Shown here: positions 7,226-13,701 of the stretch, in pieces | How the letters are laid out: the number at the start of each line of letters is the position of its first letter | Position numbering within the stretch: position 1 is the first letter of the stretch | Source of the DNA: Candidatus Thorarchaeota archaeon | GTDB lineage: Archaea; Asgardarchaeota; Thorarchaeia; Thorarchaeales; Thorarchaeaceae | Direction of reading: 5' to 3' | Assembly (NCBI GenBank): GCA_038893995.1 | Contig: JAWAQK010000030.1 | Span: 1-30,056, forward strand | DNA length: 30,056 nt | Position numbers and translations under genes: made by a program | Notes under the pieces: model-generated | Seen by the model: the letters and a program-made list of their open reading frames with translations, nothing else | The model's database searches: none | What the model was told of the DNA's origin: nothing

Positions 7226-7813
7226 TCAGGGGACCAAGTCAGAGAGCAGGGACGACAGACCAAGCTCACACAACTGGTCACGTGCGGAACTCGCAAACTG
7301 GATGATGGACAGTAGTAGATGAATCTCGGACCATGCAGCCGCAGATGCAGCAACCGCACTCTCCAGGACGGTCTCTCGATCCACCTTCAGCGCAGAGCAT
7401 GCGGCGCGGACCGAGACCTGCCTCACGTTGGATGCACTCCGGGCCCAGAATCTGGCAGACGGCTCGTCCAGGAAGACCTCACATCCGTCTTCTCGGTTTG
7501 CCAGAAACAGATGCGTGACATCGGTCAGATCGACAGTGGCACCAGCACTGGTCTCTGAGGTTGTCATCCCACTGTCGCGCAGGACTGTGACATGATCTAT
7601 GGGAGTGGGACCGCTCTGAAGAGGGATGCTCACACCACCTATGCCAAACTCTGCGCGACGCCGAACTACATGGTTCATGTCATCATCTGCGGGAGACCAG
7701 ATGGTCCGATAGATCAGGAGGGAGTTGTCTGTGCAGTCCAACCTTGTTTCCACAACTCGGTCAGTCCCCGCGTTTCCGAGTTCTGTGACCACGTGCGATC
7801 TTGTTATGGCCAT
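7226..7813 (-). CDS. Hypothetical protein, possibly the last gene of the ars operon
   Basis: 195-aa ORF with a GAGGAG SD, starting 22 nt after the arsR stop. No family recognised. Confidence 0.6.
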   Translation of the reverse strand: MAITRSHVVTELGNAGTDRVVETRLDCTDNSLLIYRTIWSPADDDMNHVVRRRAEFGIGGVSIPLQSGPTPIDHVTVLRDSGMTTSETSAGATVDLTDVTHLFLANREDGCEVFLDEPSARFWARSASNVRQVSVRAACSALKVDRETVLESAVAASAAAWSEIHLLLSIIQFASSARDQLCELGLSSLLSDLVP

Positions 7814-7835: not shown

Positions 7836-8165
7836 CTACTGAGTCTCGGTCTGACCTTGACCTCTCACAGTCCTCTGTCGTGTCAACTCGCGTAACCTGG
7901 CAATGATGTCGACAATGGCAGGGTCAGCAATTCTGTAGAGTTTCCTTGTTCCATCACGACGCATGACCAATATGCCTGTTCGAACCAACTGATTGAGGTA
8001 TGTGGATATGACTGACTGCGGTCCATCCAGGTATTTCCCAATGTCGCATTGACAGAGCTCCTGACCGACAAGAAGTTCTACTATCGCAAGGCGTAGGGGA
8101 TTGGCAAGTGCCTTGAGAAACTCCACGATCCACTCCGAGTCTTGTCGTTCTGTCAATGTGTTCAC
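7836..8165 (-). CDS. arsR: ArsR/SmtB family metalloregulator
   Basis: FLKALANPLRLAIVELL, ELCQCDI (compare the ELCVCDL As(III) site), HTH SVISTYLNQL..GIL..RRDG..KLYRI. Confidence 0.9.
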   Translation of the reverse strand: MNTLTERQDSEWIVEFLKALANPLRLAIVELLVGQELCQCDIGKYLDGPQSVISTYLNQLVRTGILVMRRDGTRKLYRIADPAIVDIIARLRELTRQRTVRGQGQTETQ

Positions 8166-8170
8166 TCTGC

Positions 8171-8431
8171 CTACGACTGAGTCTGTTTTACTATTGCCGC
8201 TTCAATTTCAGCAACAGTGGGATTGGGCCCCAGGAGTATGTTGCCAACAAGTACGCCACGATACGAGACACCTGCCTCCCTCGCAGCCTCGCTGTCAGCT
8301 GAACACTCCCTGTATTCCACCTCGTCCAGATGGTTGCGAATAGCCTCATACACGCGGCTGAGAAATGTGGTCTGACTGCACCCACAGACTCCCGCTGGGA
8401 GGAACACTGTGATTGTCACTCGCTTCTCCAT
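8171..8431 (-). CDS. Small thioredoxin-fold redox protein with a CGC motif
   Basis: Beta strand VTITVF followed by GVCGCS, then SEAAREAGV...VLVGN..LGPNPT..EIEAAI. Resembles thioredoxin/ArsD-like folds. Confidence 0.6.
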   Translation of the reverse strand: MEKRVTITVFLPAGVCGCSQTTFLSRVYEAIRNHLDEVEYRECSADSEAAREAGVSYRGVLVGNILLGPNPTVAEIEAAIVKQTQS

Positions 8432-8435
8432 TAGA

Positions 8436-8840
8436 TCATCTCCATCTATCTCTCACTGAGTCGACGGCAGATGCAACATCTGCAGCTACCCGTTCTACAA
8501 TATCACTAAACTCGTCAATCTTCCATTTACCTTTTGCAGGGGAACACGCGTCAGGCAGATAGTCCTCGACGCAGATCCTGGCCGAGGGCTCTGCACTGTA
8601 CTTCGCGGTCTGTAGAGCTGCGCACATCTTGCTACAGCCGTCGATCGTGATGGTCGGAAACACCCGTGCAAACTCACGCTCATCAGCATCACCAGCAATG
8701 AACAGTGGAAGACAGATCGTGACCGTTTCGTCTGGCTTCAACTGGTGAAGTACACGAAGCGTCGCGGCCCTTGACACACTACCTCCTATACAGTCTTCAC
8801 CACTACATGAAATTAGTCCCACTTTTGGTTTGAAGGTCAT
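8436..8840 (-). CDS. DGC domain (putative zinc-binding) protein
   Basis: ISCSG, TICLPLF and ITIDGCSKMCA give the DGC family Cys pattern. Confidence 0.88.
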   Translation of the reverse strand: MTFKPKVGLISCSGEDCIGGSVSRAATLRVLHQLKPDETVTICLPLFIAGDADEREFARVFPTITIDGCSKMCAALQTAKYSAEPSARICVEDYLPDACSPAKGKWKIDEFSDIVERVAADVASAVDSVRDRWR

Positions 8841-9229
8841 TGATTTCCCTCCGGTAGTATTTCTCTGACAACATCTCTGGCCAGAAGCACACCACCCTCA
8901 CCTATGTCGAGCACAGTCCCAGGGCTATGCTCCCTGTTTGCTGCCAACACCCTTGGCAACAGGATCTCCTTGACAACATTGGAACCCACGCGTTTCGCAC
9001 ACACTGTTGCGCACTTCTTGGGACATCCATCGATCGTGATGACTCTGGAGGTCCTCACAGTTTCTACAGAGTGCTCGTCTTCAGCCATGAGGAGCGCAAG
9101 GCACAGGGTTCTGTACTTGTCGTGATGCTCATGCTCCGTCAGCATGTATGTTGCTTCGCGTGCAACAGAGCCGAATGCCTTGCCTATCCCGCTACATGGT
9201 AGTATCACTATCTTATCAGCTGATGTCAT
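8837..9229 (-). CDS. DGC domain (putative zinc-binding) protein
   Basis: LPCSGIGKAFGSVAREA, TLCLALL, ITIDGCPKKCA. ATGA overlaps with both neighbours. Confidence 0.88.
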   Translation of the reverse strand: MTSADKIVILPCSGIGKAFGSVAREATYMLTEHEHHDKYRTLCLALLMAEDEHSVETVRTSRVITIDGCPKKCATVCAKRVGSNVVKEILLPRVLAANREHSPGTVLDIGEGGVLLARDVVREILPEGNQ

Positions 9230-10074
9230 GCTGTTGACACCTTCTTGCCTAGTTCGTGTTTCGCCCTCTCAGATGCACGTGCCATGTATTCGACTGCATC
9301 CTTGAGCAGTTCCAGTTCAGTGATGTCACTGGGACTCATCAGGTAGAGCCAGCCCTCGTCATATGGCGACTCGTTCACGAGTTCTGGTCGCTCCCTGAGC
9401 TGGTCATTACGCTCCACAATGACACCCGATACGGGGGATATTATCTCGACCATCGTCTTGGTGGACTCAAGCACGCCTATATCATCGCCCAGCGATACCT
9501 CGCGTCCTGCTTCGACCAGCTCGACGTAATAGATGTCGGACAAGGACTGCTGGAGCAGGTCGGTTGCACCGATTCGGACCTTGTCTCCCTCCAACGAGAC
9601 CCAGAAATCGTTGTCACTGTAACGAAGACCCTCCTTGACTCTCAATGTGAACTTGTCAATCTTCTGGACAAGAAATTGTCCATTCTCTTCCTGGAGGGCA
9701 CTCACTCGTCCCATGGGAGTTGTGGGTTCGAGCAGACCTCCGAGTCTGGATCGGACTTGTTCCACCACAGTCTGGACCTTGTCAGAGTCAGGTAACTCAG
9801 ACTCCGACAGCTCACCGAGTTCGATGCTGTGGAGAGTATGGGCGCCTCTTGAATCTGCAATCTTAGAAGCACAGCGCATTCCGCAACCGTCAATACATAT
9901 CACCGGGGACGATCGAAAGTCCTTCAACTCGCCCGCCCTCGCGTTTACCAATGCAGCAATACTACCTATCACAATCGCATCAGATGAAGCATACAGCTTC
10001 TCTGCTGCCTTCCTCGTGAAGTGTCCCCCTGGGCGATCAAAACCACAACAGGGCAGAATGTATACTCGATTCAC
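9226..10074 (-). CDS. DGC domain fused to a glycine-cleavage H-protein-like lipoyl carrier
   Basis: N-terminal LPCCG...ICIDGCGMRCA. C-terminal LRYS..DFWV...VRIGATD..QQSLSDIYYVEL...ESTKTMVEIISPVSG...PELVNESPYDEGWL with the lipoyl Lys retained. GTG at 10074 overlaps the ferredoxin TGA; alternative starts are 10083 and 10095. Confidence 0.85.
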   Translation of the reverse strand: MNRVYILPCCGFDRPGGHFTRKAAEKLYASSDAIVIGSIAALVNARAGELKDFRSSPVICIDGCGMRCASKIADSRGAHTLHSIELGELSESELPDSDKVQTVVEQVRSRLGGLLEPTTPMGRVSALQEENGQFLVQKIDKFTLRVKEGLRYSDNDFWVSLEGDKVRIGATDLLQQSLSDIYYVELVEAGREVSLGDDIGVLESTKTMVEIISPVSGVIVERNDQLRERPELVNESPYDEGWLYLMSPSDITELELLKDAVEYMARASERAKHELGKKVSTA

Positions 10075-10415
10075 CGACAGCATTCCCCCGAACATCTACA
10101 TTCGTCGCTAGCGATCCGAGCGGCCTTTATGAGGCCCAGGATCTCCGATTTGTCGGGGAACGATATTGCACCCTTCGGACACATCTTCTTGCACGCCTGG
10201 CAGAATACAACGCAGTTGTATGGATTTTCCACCTCAATGTACGGAGGACCTGAGCGAGACCTGTAGACATGATGAGGACAGAATTTCAGGCAGTCGTAGG
10301 CGCCGCCACAGCCGTCACAGAGAGTCGTATCGATGCGAGGCCACCATGGTATTAGTCTTCGGTCCACACCCATGAACGTAGTCGATCCACATGAGTCACT
10401 AGACACTGTAGCCAC
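10071..10415 (-). CDS. 4Fe-4S dicluster ferredoxin with a Cys-rich C-terminal tail
   Basis: CDGCGGAYDCLKFCP and CVVFCQACKKMCP; tail ECRCSGECCR. Exact start uncertain. Confidence 0.88.
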   Translation of the reverse strand: MATVSSDSCGSTTFMGVDRRLIPWWPRIDTTLCDGCGGAYDCLKFCPHHVYRSRSGPPYIEVENPYNCVVFCQACKKMCPKGAISFPDKSEILGLIKAARIASDECRCSGECCR

Positions 10416-10776
10416 TCTCCTTGAGTGATTCGGTCACCTTTGCGAATGCATCATCGGTAGTCGTGTCCCTTATGTCAATTGAGATGAGATCCCGCTTGAC
10501 GTCAAGGCCCTGCTTGGCAAATGCGTCCCTGAAGAGCTTGTGCTGCATGGCAGGGGCACAGCCACCGATGATTACTCCTCGTCCCTTCTTCAGTGTGGCT
10601 TCGAGGTACCTGTCACCGTCTTCGACACAGAGCTGTGGATGAATGACTGCGTACTCGACAGGCAACTCAAGACGCACTCTGTTGATGAAGTCCCATATGT
10701 CCATCTTCTGAAAACCGGGACACTTGCCGGTACAGACACACATGATGAATACTGGCCGGGAGCCCTGTTGATCCAC
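10399..10776 (-). CDS. Stand-alone heterodisulfide reductase subunit A N-terminal-like domain protein
   Basis: FIMCVCTGKC...HPQLC..DG...VIIGGCAP....KLFRDA....GL......IDIRD matches the HdrA N-domain pattern (CxC...LC...AACSP..HE..FR...NIRE). SD GGAGGTG lies 7 nt before GTG 10776. Confidence 0.75.
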   Translation of the reverse strand: MDQQGSRPVFIMCVCTGKCPGFQKMDIWDFINRVRLELPVEYAVIHPQLCVEDGDRYLEATLKKGRGVIIGGCAPAMQHKLFRDAFAKQGLDVKRDLISIDIRDTTTDDAFAKVTESLKESGYSV

Positions 10777-10778
10777 TA

Positions 10779-11912
10779 CTAGGCACCTCCTGTAACACAC
10801 TCGGCCGCCTGGCCCACTTGAAGATTGTAGAATCGTCGGCCTAACCAGAGGGCTACATAGACAAGACCGAGCAGAATTGGCACCTCCAGCAGCGGACCAA
10901 CTACTGCCGCAAGGGCCTGTCCTGAGTCAATTCCAAAGACACCAATAGCAACAGCGATGGCCAACTCGAAGTTGTTACTTGCCGCAGTGAATGACAGGGT
11001 CACATTCTTGTCATAGGCAAACTTCAAGGCGTACGAGATTCCGAACGACACCAGGAACATGAGGACAAAATAGGAGATCAGAGGTAGAGAGATCCGCAGC
11101 ACATCAAATGGAAGAGAGATGATGACATCACCCTTCAGCGAGAACATCACAACAATGGTGAATAGCAGACCTATCAATGCATATGGTCCCAGTTTGGGAG
11201 CAAAGTCCCGATCATACCATTCTTTCGAACGCCTTCTGATAAGTACGTACCTCGTGACTACGCCGGCCATGAGAGGAATTCCGAGGAAGATGAACACGCT
11301 CTGGGCGATATCTAGCACTGAAACGTCAACTACCTCTCCGGACCCCAGCCCCAATACGGAGGGAAGATAGGTGATGAAGAACCACGCCTCGGGGCTATAC
11401 ATTACTATCTGGAAGACGGAGTTCAGCGCCACAAGGACTGCACAAGACTCTCCACAGCCACCCGCAAGCATGTTCCAGATGAGGACCATTGCAATACAAC
11501 GTGCTAGTCCCACTAATACCACACCAGTCCTGTAATCGGGCAGATCGGCCAAGAACAACCACGCAAGGCTGAACATCAGAAAGGGGCCTACCAGCCAATT
11601 TAGAGTCAGTGAAACCCCAAACATCTTACGCTCGCGCTTGAGCTTGCCGAGCTCCTCATACTTCACTTTCGCAAGTACTGGGTACATCATCCATAGCAGG
11701 CCTACTGCTATTGGTAATGATACAGTTCCGATACGAAAGAAGTCGAGCAAGTCAGCAAGCCCTGGGAACACATACCCAAGAAGAAGGCCAACTATCATGG
11801 CGAGAATTATCCAAAGAGGCAAGAGCCGGTCAAGCAGACCAAGTCCCTTTGTAGGGACGAGAATCCCAATTCGAGTACTGTCTGATCCGGGAGACATATG
11901 CTCTTGTGACAT
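10779..11912 (-). CDS. acr3: ACR3 family arsenite efflux transporter
   Basis: LDRLLPLWI, GLLWMMYPVLAKV, GLARCIAMV (conserved Cys), AASNNFELAIAVAI and GPLLEVP; about 10 TM helices. Confidence 0.95.
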   Translation of the reverse strand: MSQEHMSPGSDSTRIGILVPTKGLGLLDRLLPLWIILAMIVGLLLGYVFPGLADLLDFFRIGTVSLPIAVGLLWMMYPVLAKVKYEELGKLKRERKMFGVSLTLNWLVGPFLMFSLAWLFLADLPDYRTGVVLVGLARCIAMVLIWNMLAGGCGESCAVLVALNSVFQIVMYSPEAWFFITYLPSVLGLGSGEVVDVSVLDIAQSVFIFLGIPLMAGVVTRYVLIRRRSKEWYDRDFAPKLGPYALIGLLFTIVVMFSLKGDVIISLPFDVLRISLPLISYFVLMFLVSFGISYALKFAYDKNVTLSFTAASNNFELAIAVAIGVFGIDSGQALAAVVGPLLEVPILLGLVYVALWLGRRFYNLQVGQAAECVTGGA

Positions 11913-11920
11913 GAGAAACC

Positions 11921-11950
11921 ATCAAATAATCGAACTATTTAAATAAATAG
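11921..11950 (-). promoter_or_regulatory. TATA box of the ars operon with an overlapping AT-rich palindrome (candidate ArsR operator)
   Basis: Minus-strand TTTAAATA at 11943-11936, 24-31 nt upstream of the acr3 ATG. Near-perfect palindrome CTATTTAAATAAATAG at 11935-11950 and imperfect ATCAAATAATCGAA at 11921-11934. Confidence 0.6.
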
Positions 11951-12090
11951 ATAGAGCTAGTGGGTGGTGACAGTGACTGTGTCAGATGAGTCCAGCCCCG
12001 CCGCAGGGAGTAAGACGTCCAAGTTAGAATGGGATGCTCAGAACCATCCTACGCGAAAAAGATAACTCTTTTCGTCTTGATGCAACACGT

Positions 12091-13701
12091 ATGCGAGGGG
12101 TCGTGTCAAGTGCGTTTCTCTTCTTGAGCCTCCTCTGCCTGACGCTGCAGGCACCCCTTTGCGTCCCGGCCACTGAGAGATGGACTGTCGCACTAGACAG
12201 GGCATACGCACCGCATGAGTATTGGGAAAATGGCACTGCAAAAGGATTCAACACGGACATCGTCCGATCTATTGCAAGGATCATGAATAGAGAGATTCAG
12301 TGGATTCCGCTCTCCTGGTCAGAAGTCTATGAGGCACTGACTAACGGCACTGTGGACAGTGTCTGCATGGCTAGGAGCCCAGAACGAGAACTCCTATTCG
12401 ACTTCAGCCAACCAATCATGAACATAACACTCAGGGTATTCGTCAGAGACGAGGTCGCAGGGATTCTAAGCATTGAAGACCTCGCTGGTCACACGGTGGC
12501 CGTCGAGGCGGGCGATATCTGTGAGGAGGTCATCCAGGACCTGTGCCCTGAGGCGGTAAGGGTGCCTGTAGAGTCGCAGGAGGAAGCTATCAGGTTGGTC
12601 GTGGAGGGAGAGGTCACTGCGGCCTTCTGCAATATGCACGCAGGTGGTCATGCCATCCTGAAGAACTCATACTCCAATGTCAAGATGGTCGCTCAGCCCA
12701 TACCAGCGGGCGAGAGATGTATAGCAGTGAGGAAGGGCAACGTTGGTCTGCTGACCGAGATAGATAGGGCGCTAGACGAGATGAAGGCAACAGGTGAATA
12801 TGATCAGATCATGGTGAGATGGTTTGGTGAGTATCCCTACGGGGGAGACCCCAACCTGCGAACAATGCTCACTGTGGTCACGAATGTCACAGTCATCGTA
12901 TTTGCGACCCTTGTGGCAGTGGTCACGTGGAGTTGGTCACTGAGAAGACGAGTGAAGAAAGCGGCCTCAAGACTGTCGTTGTTGGGGGACCTGTTCAGAC
13001 ACGACCTTCGGAACATTGAACAGTGCATATCTGCATGTATTGAGCTACTAACAGATGAGAGGATACCTGAAGATCTGAGGAGAGACCTGAGAGATGATGC
13101 AATATTTGCAGTGAATCGGGCAAAGCGGCTCATAGACGACTATTCCACAATCGAGGAACTGACAGCGAATTCAGTGCCACTCACTGAATTAGATCTGGGA
13201 TCAACATTGAGCTCAGCTGTAGAACAGTTCGCAACCGAACGGCAACAATTCATGGTCAGGACTCGATTCAACCATGTGTCGGCATTGCGAGTAGTTGCAG
13301 TCCCCATGTTGAAAGATGTGTTCCTACGTATTCTGGAGTCCCTAGCAAGCATGCCCACTAGCAGGAACAAGTCAGACATGATCGACATCACGACCTCACG
13401 GAGCGGCAGATGGGTGATGATAGAGTTTCGCCGACACTGCAACAGCATACCGGAGAACATCAAGGAGGGCCTGCTGAAGAGGCACATGGGCGTGCAGGCG
13501 CCAATGGTAGGGCTCGACATGTCGATGGTATATGCCGCGGTGACTTCAAGCCGAGGGGTTGTCAGACTAGAGGATATTGAGGATGGCGGAGTACTAGTGA
13601 GAGTGTGTCTTAGGGAAACACGAAACCGACGGAGGATTCTGCCGATTGCGTCTACGAGAAGGTCTCTACGAGAACAAGAGGCCCCCTGTGCGAAGACCTG
13701 A
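12091..13701 (+). CDS. Membrane sensor: family-3 solute-binding domain + TM + degenerate histidine-kinase core
   Basis: Signal/TM helix. SBP motifs YAPHEY, GFNTDI, W..VYEALTNGTVD, ERELLFDFSQP and GEYDQIMVRWF. Second TM, H-box FRHDLRN, eroded HATPase boxes. ORF open from 12034. Confidence 0.8.
   Translation: MRGVVSSAFLFLSLLCLTLQAPLCVPATERWTVALDRAYAPHEYWENGTAKGFNTDIVRSIARIMNREIQWIPLSWSEVYEALTNGTVDSVCMARSPERELLFDFSQPIMNITLRVFVRDEVAGILSIEDLAGHTVAVEAGDICEEVIQDLCPEAVRVPVESQEEAIRLVVEGEVTAAFCNMHAGGHAILKNSYSNVKMVAQPIPAGERCIAVRKGNVGLLTEIDRALDEMKATGEYDQIMVRWFGEYPYGGDPNLRTMLTVVTNVTVIVFATLVAVVTWSWSLRRRVKKAASRLSLLGDLFRHDLRNIEQCISACIELLTDERIPEDLRRDLRDDAIFAVNRAKRLIDDYSTIEELTANSVPLTELDLGSTLSSAVEQFATERQQFMVRTRFNHVSALRVVAVPMLKDVFLRILESLASMPTSRNKSDMIDITTSRSGRWVMIEFRRHCNSIPENIKEGLLKRHMGVQAPMVGLDMSMVYAAVTSSRGVVRLEDIEDGGVLVRVCLRETRNRRRILPIASTRRSLREQEAPCAKT

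Follow-up and report, generated by a model that had tools for sequence, protein, structure and literature searches.

The lipoyl-dependent thiol relay Lpd-DlaT-AhpD-AhpC of Mycobacterium tuberculosis is among the closest described counterparts of the system analyzed here, and lipoic acid is itself the textbook target of arsenite. Another counterpart is the sHdr-LbpA sulfur-oxidation system, said to have been described by Cao et al. in 2018, in which a GcvH-like lipoate-binding protein reportedly occurs with Hdr-type iron–sulfur (Fe-S) proteins and dedicated LplA-like ligases. We analyzed a 30,056-nucleotide stretch of DNA (hereafter, the window) from a Candidatus Thorarchaeota archaeon (assembly GCA_038893995.1, contig JAWAQK010000030.1), where a gene at positions 9226–10095 of the minus strand encodes a DGC::GcvH fusion, that is, a DGC domain joined to an H-protein-type lipoyl domain. 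The first-pass annotation of the window took this fusion by itself; the protein belongs, as one subunit, to a core of five genes for Fe-S, lipoyl and DGC proteins, which in the window lies in an operon with the arsenite efflux permease ACR3 and an ArsR repressor.

Protein-bound lipoyl groups act as reductants of Ohr/OsmC enzymes, and in Trichomonas the H and L proteins are proposed to support OsmC (PMC5384416), so that there is a precedent for thiol reduction by an H protein apart from its part in glycine cleavage. The core resembles these relays (Lpd-DlaT-AhpD-AhpC in M. tuberculosis; L protein-H protein-OsmC/Ohr in Trichomonas) in that a lipoyl protein would serve as the dithiol reductant of cysteine proteins outside a metabolic complex, and genes for Lpd, AhpD-like (CMD) and OsmC-like proteins adjoin the cassettes described below. 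It differs in its partners, which are DGC, HdrA-N-like and ferredoxin proteins, and in its arsenic rather than peroxide context. The sHdr-LbpA system shares with the core a GcvH-like lipoyl protein, an Hdr-type Fe-S protein and LplA-like ligases, whereas the core has only the N-terminal domain of HdrA, no HdrB/C CCG domain, no flavoprotein, DGC proteins, and an ArsR/ACR3 context. Of the nine genes in the window's operon, none was recognized as HdrB or HdrC, and the HdrA-N-like protein is the sole Hdr-related gene product.

Our literature search turned up no account of either the fusion or the cassette, and the only paper found to place PF08859 (DGC) in an arsenic context concerns a single uncharacterised, stand-alone DGC gene in the arsenic-responsive arsR-arsP-arsE operon of Pseudodesulfovibrio mercurii (bioRxiv 10.1101/2022.10.17.512643). 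This operon, from strain ND132, is like the one studied here in having a DGC gene under ArsR together with a small thioredoxin (Trx)-fold protein, but it has a single DGC and no lipoyl or Fe-S proteins, and its DGC is likewise uncharacterised.

Architecture of the DGC::GcvH fusion

The fusion gene is a single open reading frame (ORF; 9226–10095, minus strand) with an ATG start and no internal stops, encoding 289 residues and two Pfam domains. The DGC domain (res. 13–113; 9757–10059, minus strand) matches PF08859 with an E-value of 4.9e-11 and 43.1 bits against a cut-off of 27. A variable, partly disordered linker (res. 114–156; 9628–9756, minus strand), whose length and sequence differ among homologues, connects it to the H-protein-type lipoyl domain (res. 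157–273; 9277–9627, minus strand), which matches PF01597 (GCV_H) with an E-value of 4.1e-32 and 111.1 bits against a cut-off of 22.2. The predicted lipoyl-lysine, K213 (codon 9457–9459, minus strand), lies in the motif E210-S211-T212-K213 and is invariant in 50 fusions.

An AlphaFold2 model of the fusion, built on 50 homologues, has a mean predicted local distance difference test (pLDDT) score of 90.1. Values below 50 are limited to residues 1–3 and 124–136, which fits two folded domains with a flexible linker between them. The H domain superimposes on the pea H protein (1dxm) with a Z-score of 23.4 and a root-mean-square deviation of 0.9 Å over 131 residues that are 37% identical, while the DGC domain adopts an α/β fold whose top structural match is 3pu6_A (Z 9.6). 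The ORF listing, the Pfam matches and the model thus agree with the first-pass annotation, which had described one ORF joining a DGC to an H-protein domain with an intact ESTK motif through a flexible linker, and had read a 'CC' and a 'DGCxxxC' in the DGC half; these are C16, C17 and D69-G70-C71...C75.

The fusion is genuine. We searched one representative genome of each prokaryotic species with an alignment of the HdrA-N-like protein, which gave 425 confirmed loci, and made detailed counts of core order and fusion in the best 80 of these. A single alignment spans both domains, in one frame, in 72 of these 80 independent loci, and the fusion loci include a complete Thorarchaeota chromosome, the complete Ca. 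Formimonas warabiya genome, and cultured Acetobacterium strains. A word-indexed protein search returned 57 clusters containing both DGC and GCV_H at 46–63% identity, the named ones mostly from Thorarchaeota, and scanning 301 genomes of the phylum located the full-length fusion in ~22 genomes of the window's own family and a second fusion clade, 29–35% identical, in other Asgard families. Three long-read Actinomycetes metagenome-assembled genomes (MAGs; L085, L125 and L132) carry the DGC part and the H part in different frames at the fusion position. This is either true fission or homopolymer frameshift error, the second being possible because these are long-read MAGs.

A conserved five-gene core within an ars operon

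Nine minus-strand genes, separated by junctions of −25 to +22 nucleotides, form the operon of the window in the order ACR3, HdrA-N-like, ferredoxin, fusion, DGC2, DGC3, an 86-residue GVCGC protein, ArsR, and a 195-residue hypothetical protein. The first gene (10779–11912, minus strand) encodes an ACR3 arsenite efflux permease that matches the equivalog TIGR00832 with 425.6 bits against a cut-off of 282.8. The repressor (7836–8165, minus strand) is of the ArsR/SmtB type with an ELCQCD motif and matches NF033788 with 65 bits against a cut-off of 55. As expected of an ars operon, an arsenite pump and an ArsR whose ELCxC motif is of the As(III) type are encoded on one strand by overlapping or nearly abutting genes.

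Between these two genes lies the core, and all 20 Asgard loci share its order (HdrA-N-like, ferredoxin, DGC::H, DGC, DGC). The HdrA-N-like gene (10399–10800, minus strand) encodes a 133-residue Fe-S protein resembling the N-terminal domain of HdrA, with five invariant cysteines in CVCTGKC, QLC and GC. A profile of 19 orthologues aligns with residues 4–93 of HdrA (7bkb_A) at an E-value of 5e-4, placing cysteines at four positions aligned to HdrA cysteines, with one extra invariant cysteine in CVCTGKC; its homologues fall into 1478 clusters. The next gene (10071–10415, minus strand) encodes a 2x[4Fe-4S]-type ferredoxin matching Pfam Fer4 families with eight invariant cysteines. The fusion is followed by two stand-alone DGC proteins, DGC2 (8837–9229, minus strand; PF08859 E-value 7e-17) and DGC3 (8436–8840, minus strand; PF08859 E-value 1e-14).

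The complete colinear core is present in 73 of the 80 loci, across about ten phyla; six others are clipped by contig ends and one is missing its two final genes. The host groups are Bacteroidota (18), Thorarchaeota (16), Actinomycetota (11), Acidobacteriota (10) and Bacillota (10), the remainder being Heimdall- and Promethearchaeota, Bathyarchaeia, Vulcanimicrobiota, and one Alphaproteobacterium. The HdrA-N-like protein is 60–76% identical between Asgard archaea and Bacteroidota, Bacillota and Acidobacteriota, and this identity over phyla points to horizontal spread. A tblastn search of PLSDB for plasmid carriage returned zero matches for the HdrA-N-like protein.

The ferredoxin of the window ends in a cysteine-rich tail, ECRCSGECCR (10071–10100, minus strand), which overlaps the start of the fusion gene. 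We considered this tail as an HgcB-like feature and rejected the idea, the tail being present in 0 of 18 orthologues.

Arsenic genes in the neighborhood of the core

We surveyed 92 loci over ~6 kb on each side of the core. ArsR is encoded in 68 of the 92, ACR3 in 32, DsbD/CcdA-like proteins in 26, ArsC of the low-molecular-weight phosphatase (LMWP) type in 24, and the GVCGC protein in 20. Less frequent neighbors are Trx-like proteins (18), Trx of the MTH895/ArsE family (17), LplA-like ligases (17), rhodaneses (14), radical S-adenosylmethionine (rSAM)/SPASM proteins (11), dihydrolipoyl dehydrogenases (9), and AhpD-like CMD proteins (7); TauE and cysteine desulfurase are found in some neighborhoods. 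At least one of ArsR, ACR3, ArsC and ArsE is encoded in 77 of the 92 loci.

This distribution bears on the possibility that the core answers thiol, peroxide or sulfane-sulfur stress in general and only travels with ars genes, its ArsR-family regulator sensing a non-arsenic signal. The ArsR/SmtB family includes persulfide and sulfite sensors, and there are weak NCBIfam matches to BigR and TsoR; OsmC-like and AhpD-like (CMD) genes occur nearby, and known lipoyl relays act in peroxide defence. However, the regulator in the window has the As(III)-type ELCxC motif, its operon opens with an equivalog ACR3, and in unrelated phyla the core repeatedly has ArsC, ArsE and ACR3 as neighbors. We consider a general stress role highly unlikely.

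We rejected the idea that the cassette replaces the arsenate reductase ArsC. Among Thorarchaeota genomes, 18 of the 22 with the cassette and 35 of the 59 without it have ArsC-like genes, counts that are descriptive only because kin are non-independent, and LMWP-type ArsC is found beside the core itself, as noted above.

An H domain apart from glycine cleavage

The genome that contains the window (2.33 Mb, 91% complete) has its own glycine-cleavage genes, with gcvT next to gcvH on contig C2 and gcvP on contig C28, whereas the window is on contig C30. In whole-genome family searches, gcvP, gcvT and LplA-like genes were absent from contig C30, in line with the first-pass annotation, which had noted that the window is free of gcvP/T/L and lipoate ligase genes. 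The genome has another stand-alone GcvH-like gene (G000 contig C7:47927-48352), which encodes 141 residues with an ESGK motif; it has a long branch in the trees and does not lie beside gcvT or gcvP.

We placed the fused H domains in trees together with the nearest stand-alone GcvH-like proteins in a library of 1.8 billion proteins and with both GcvH copies of the genome itself. The fusions and stand-alone proteins with a DKFxFRV extension fall on one side of a branch supported by Shimodaira–Hasegawa-like approximate likelihood-ratio test (SH-aLRT) values of 98 (LG+G4) and 97 (C20 mixture), which are supports from quick trees rather than a bootstrap search, and both GcvH genes of the genome lie across that branch. 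The fused domain therefore groups apart from canonical GcvH and is not the genome's only H protein, and the proposal of a lipoyl domain outside the glycine cleavage system is supported, given the separate clade and the gcvT-gcvH and gcvP genes on other contigs. Compared with GcvH (PF01597), the fused domain keeps the fold and the lipoyl-lysine hairpin motif but differs in its DGC partner domain, its N-terminal DKFxFRV extension, its separate clade and its ars-operon location. GcvH-L of Streptococcus and Staphylococcus (TIGR03077, PDB 5a35) is likewise an H-like lipoyl protein outside glycine cleavage, encoded in a stress operon, and is structurally similar (Z 16.3), but the fused domain scores far under its family cut-off (65.5 bits against 144.05), and the partners of the fused domain include no macrodomain or sirtuin.

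These data weigh on a group of more conventional explanations, which we judge extremely improbable: that the protein is a spare H protein of glycine cleavage, that it serves as a lipoyl-relay donor in lipoate assembly, or that it is an artefact of assembly or frameshift. The H domain passes the cut-off of the looser PRK01202 GcvH subfamily (121.9 bits against 117), and its 37% identity to the pea H protein would suit a spare GcvH, but it falls under the gcvH equivalog TIGR00527 (112.9 bits against a cut-off of 115.85), and the separate clade and the glycine-cleavage genes elsewhere in the genome speak against it. The artefact is opposed by the retention of the fusion in more than 70 independent assemblies, including complete chromosomes.

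Lipoate machinery beside the core

In Firmicutes, enzymes that could attach and cycle the lipoyl arm flank the core. The HdrA-N-like gene is immediately preceded by one for a dihydrolipoyl dehydrogenase (E3), matching TIGR01350 with 522 bits against a cut-off of 409, in Desulfofundulus, Formimonas, Dehalobacterium and a Desulfotomaculaceae MAG; in Acetobacterium the dehydrogenase gene is just downstream of the core. The LplA-like ligase is often encoded next after the last DGC gene. Firmicutes loci with both a flanking dihydrolipoyl dehydrogenase and an LplA-like ligase are L108, L118, L119, L134, L122, L129 and L142. Judged by gene content, the core of cultured Acetobacterium and Formimonas is a self-contained lipoyl system. 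A ligase and an E3 beside an H-type protein are the best available evidence for lysine lipoylation and redox cycling of the arm, and K213 of the fusion is, by prediction, likely to be lipoylated.

A genome search for lplA, which the first-pass annotation had suggested, found LplA-like genes on contigs C1 and C8 of the window's genome, and no close orthologue of the cassette-linked ligases or of the DUF5714 protein of other Thorarchaeota was found in that genome. The match on C1 (G000 contig C1:47524-48537) lies within an unusually long frame of 569 residues and is 26–31% identical to the cassette-linked Thorarchaeota ligases.

A short cassette with an unfused H protein

We used stand-alone H proteins of the fusion's clade as queries to retrieve metagenome loci, which revealed a shorter arrangement. 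In each of the 23 loci in which the contig continues, orthologues of DGC2 and DGC3 come immediately after the unfused H gene, and in many of these loci ArsR is encoded directly upstream of it. An OsmC-like gene comes next in 17 of 27 short loci, followed by ArsE, ferredoxin, ArsC and ACR3; it is present in 0 of 93 long-cassette loci. The full arrangement in L145-L171 (e.g. L145:1750-6559) reads ArsR, DKF-type GcvH, DGC, DGC, OsmC-like, ArsE-type Trx, ferredoxin, ArsC and ACR3, and the second DGC of the short cassette has a ~110-residue C-terminal extension.

From these loci, the minimal unit is H plus two DGC proteins, and because an unfused H of the same clade heads the short cassette, the link between DGC and lipoyl domain holds in both fused and unfused form. 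The first-pass annotation had drawn this link from the fusion by Rosetta-stone logic, and it is now strong, with the fusion kept over many phyla and the unfused H followed by two DGC genes wherever the contig continues. Neither the HdrA-N-like gene nor the N-terminal DGC domain occurs in any of the short loci; that is, the fused DGC domain is present or absent together with the HdrA-N-like protein and its ferredoxin. This co-occurrence suggests that the fused DGC domain is an adaptor between the Fe-S input module and the lipoyl arm.

Cysteine sites of the fused and stand-alone DGC domains

All three DGC matches in the window's genome are in the operon at this locus. The two stand-alone paralogues share the motif CSG...C...[DEN]GCxxxC, with four invariant cysteines in each. 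The fused domain has cysteines at positions 16, 17, 67, 71 and 75, of which C16, C71 and C75 are invariant and C17 is not conserved. The first-pass annotation correctly noticed that the middle cysteine of the paralogues is replaced by serine: C43 of DGC2 corresponds to Ser45 of the fusion (codon 9961–9963, minus strand) in 32 of 32 Thorarchaeota-type fusions. It overlooked a new cysteine at position 67 (codon 9895–9897, minus strand), four residues ahead of the DGC cysteine, in 27 of the 32. Cys67 may be a relocated fourth ligand that substitutes for the second cysteine lost at Ser45. Another Asgard clade of fusions has neither the Ser45 nor the Cys67 pattern, and the fourth cysteine of the fused DGC is present, relocated or absent by clade.

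The model of DGC2 (pLDDT 94.5) is an α/β three-layer fold with a sole match above Z 8, the uncharacterised 3pu6_A (Z 9.1), below which come hydrogenase maturation proteases (Z 7–8 against DGC), flavodoxins, and folds of the low-molecular-weight protein tyrosine phosphatase (LMW-PTP)/ArsC type, overall at Z 6–8. Searches of DGC against solved structures gave zero sequence matches and zero Foldseek matches at E ≤ 0.001. In DGC and HdrA-N-like proteins alike, the cysteines come after strands 1, 2 and 3, and the DGC site may hold Zn, an Fe-S cluster, a redox-active disulfide or As(III). Homology between DGC and the HdrA-N-like protein was rejected (hhalign probability 1.7%, E 0.03, cysteines only roughly aligned).

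Two further explanations turn on these sites. One holds that the system is an As(III) sink or metallochaperone, in which the dihydrolipoyl arm and three cysteines of the fused DGC bind As(III) and pass it to ACR3 in an ArsD-like manner, the role of the Fe-S proteins being confined to holding the arm in its reduced state. As(III) is bound by S3 sites in ArsR, ArsD and ArsA and, tightly, by dihydrolipoate; three cysteines of the fused domain are invariant while the fourth is often lost, ACR3 is adjacent in the window and in about a third of the surveyed loci, and the cassette is no replacement for ArsC. Nevertheless, two Fe-S proteins and three DGC paralogues would be superfluous for a chaperone, the four invariant cysteines of the stand-alone DGC proteins better suit a metal or cluster site, the fourth cysteine is regained at position 67 in most Thor-type fusions, and many loci have no ACR3 within 6 kb. 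We regard the sink or chaperone as unlikely.

The other explanation is that the core is a new reductase or lyase that depends on ferredoxin and acts on an arsenic species outside the reach of the known ars enzymes of anaerobes, such as pentavalent organoarsenicals, thioarsenates or As(V) itself, with DGC proteins as catalysts and the lipoyl arm as internal reductant. A multi-cluster electron wire with a swinging arm is more like an enzyme complex than a carrier, the gene order is strictly kept, rhodanese, rSAM/SPASM, TauE and cysteine desulfurase occur in some neighborhoods, and DGC weakly resembles LMW-PTP/ArsC folds (Foldseek probability 0.93–0.95 but E > 0.01; Z 6–7). These structural matches are at noise level, however, the distribution of ArsC given above argues against an ArsC substitute, and we found no clue to a substrate. 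We regard such an enzyme as distinctly unlikely.

A possible lipoyl-arm relay in arsenic defence

We give an even chance to the reading that the core is a lipoyl-arm dithiol relay dedicated to arsenic defence. In the window's genome, the module would be transcribed together with acr3 and arsR. Low-potential electrons would enter through the ferredoxin and the HdrA-N-like protein, while in Firmicutes NAD(P)H electrons could be fed in by dihydrolipoyl dehydrogenase. The lipoyl arm on K213 would act as a swinging dithiol, with the fused DGC domain as a docking or transfer site. Once reduced, the arm would reduce cysteine sites in both stand-alone DGC proteins and in small Trx-like partners, or swap thiol-bound As(III) with them. 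Such a relay would keep the thiol chemistry of arsenic detoxification going, with As(III) leaving the cell through ACR3. Within this scheme we infer that the arm is lipoylated, which way electrons flow, what metal the DGC sites hold, and what the substrate is.

Several points weigh against a dedicated arsenic relay. Lipoylation, redox activity and arsenic binding of the fusion are all inferred. Free dihydrolipoyl groups are poisoned by As(III), so that their benefit as reductants during arsenic stress is not self-evident, and ArsR-family regulators sense other signals too. Fifteen of the 92 loci have no ars gene within 6 kb, many of them on short contigs. In the window's genome neither a ligase nor an E3 is encoded beside the operon, the LplA-like genes being on other contigs only, and LipA (TIGR00510) was not found in the 91%-complete assembly. 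The DGC fold is without an informative structural relative, and its four cysteines are regarded by Pfam as a zinc site, which could be purely structural.

A broader formulation, in which the core is a previously unknown, ferredoxin-driven and lipoate-dependent enzyme complex of anaerobes that converts or transports an arsenic species at DGC cysteine or cluster sites, is one we hold only tentatively. If true, it would give the DGC family its first function and lipoate a new role in metalloid resistance. A dedicated, ArsR-linked lipoyl protein would mean that the target chemistry of arsenite had been recruited for defence, and the relay, if correct, would open a first functional approach both to the DGC domain (PF08859) and to HdrA N-terminal domains that stand alone, two uncharacterised entities. 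The question is directly testable, since the module is present in the cultured, tractable anaerobes Acetobacterium wieringae DSM 1911, A. paludosum DSM 8237 and Ca. Formimonas warabiya DCMF.

Other elements of the window

The 86-residue GVCGC protein (8171–8431, minus strand) has no Pfam or NCBIfam match; an orthologue follows DGC3 in most Thorarchaeota loci. The 195-residue hypothetical protein that ends the gene string (7226–7813, minus strand) has no family match, and its orthologue follows ArsR in several Thorarchaeota loci. Upstream of acr3, a repeat search located an AT-rich imperfect palindrome (11929–11955) with 12-nucleotide arms that are 83% complementary. It overlaps a TATA-like tract, and the two are a candidate TATA box and ArsR operator. 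A sensor-like gene with an SBP_bac_3 domain (12034–13701, plus strand) diverges from the palindrome.

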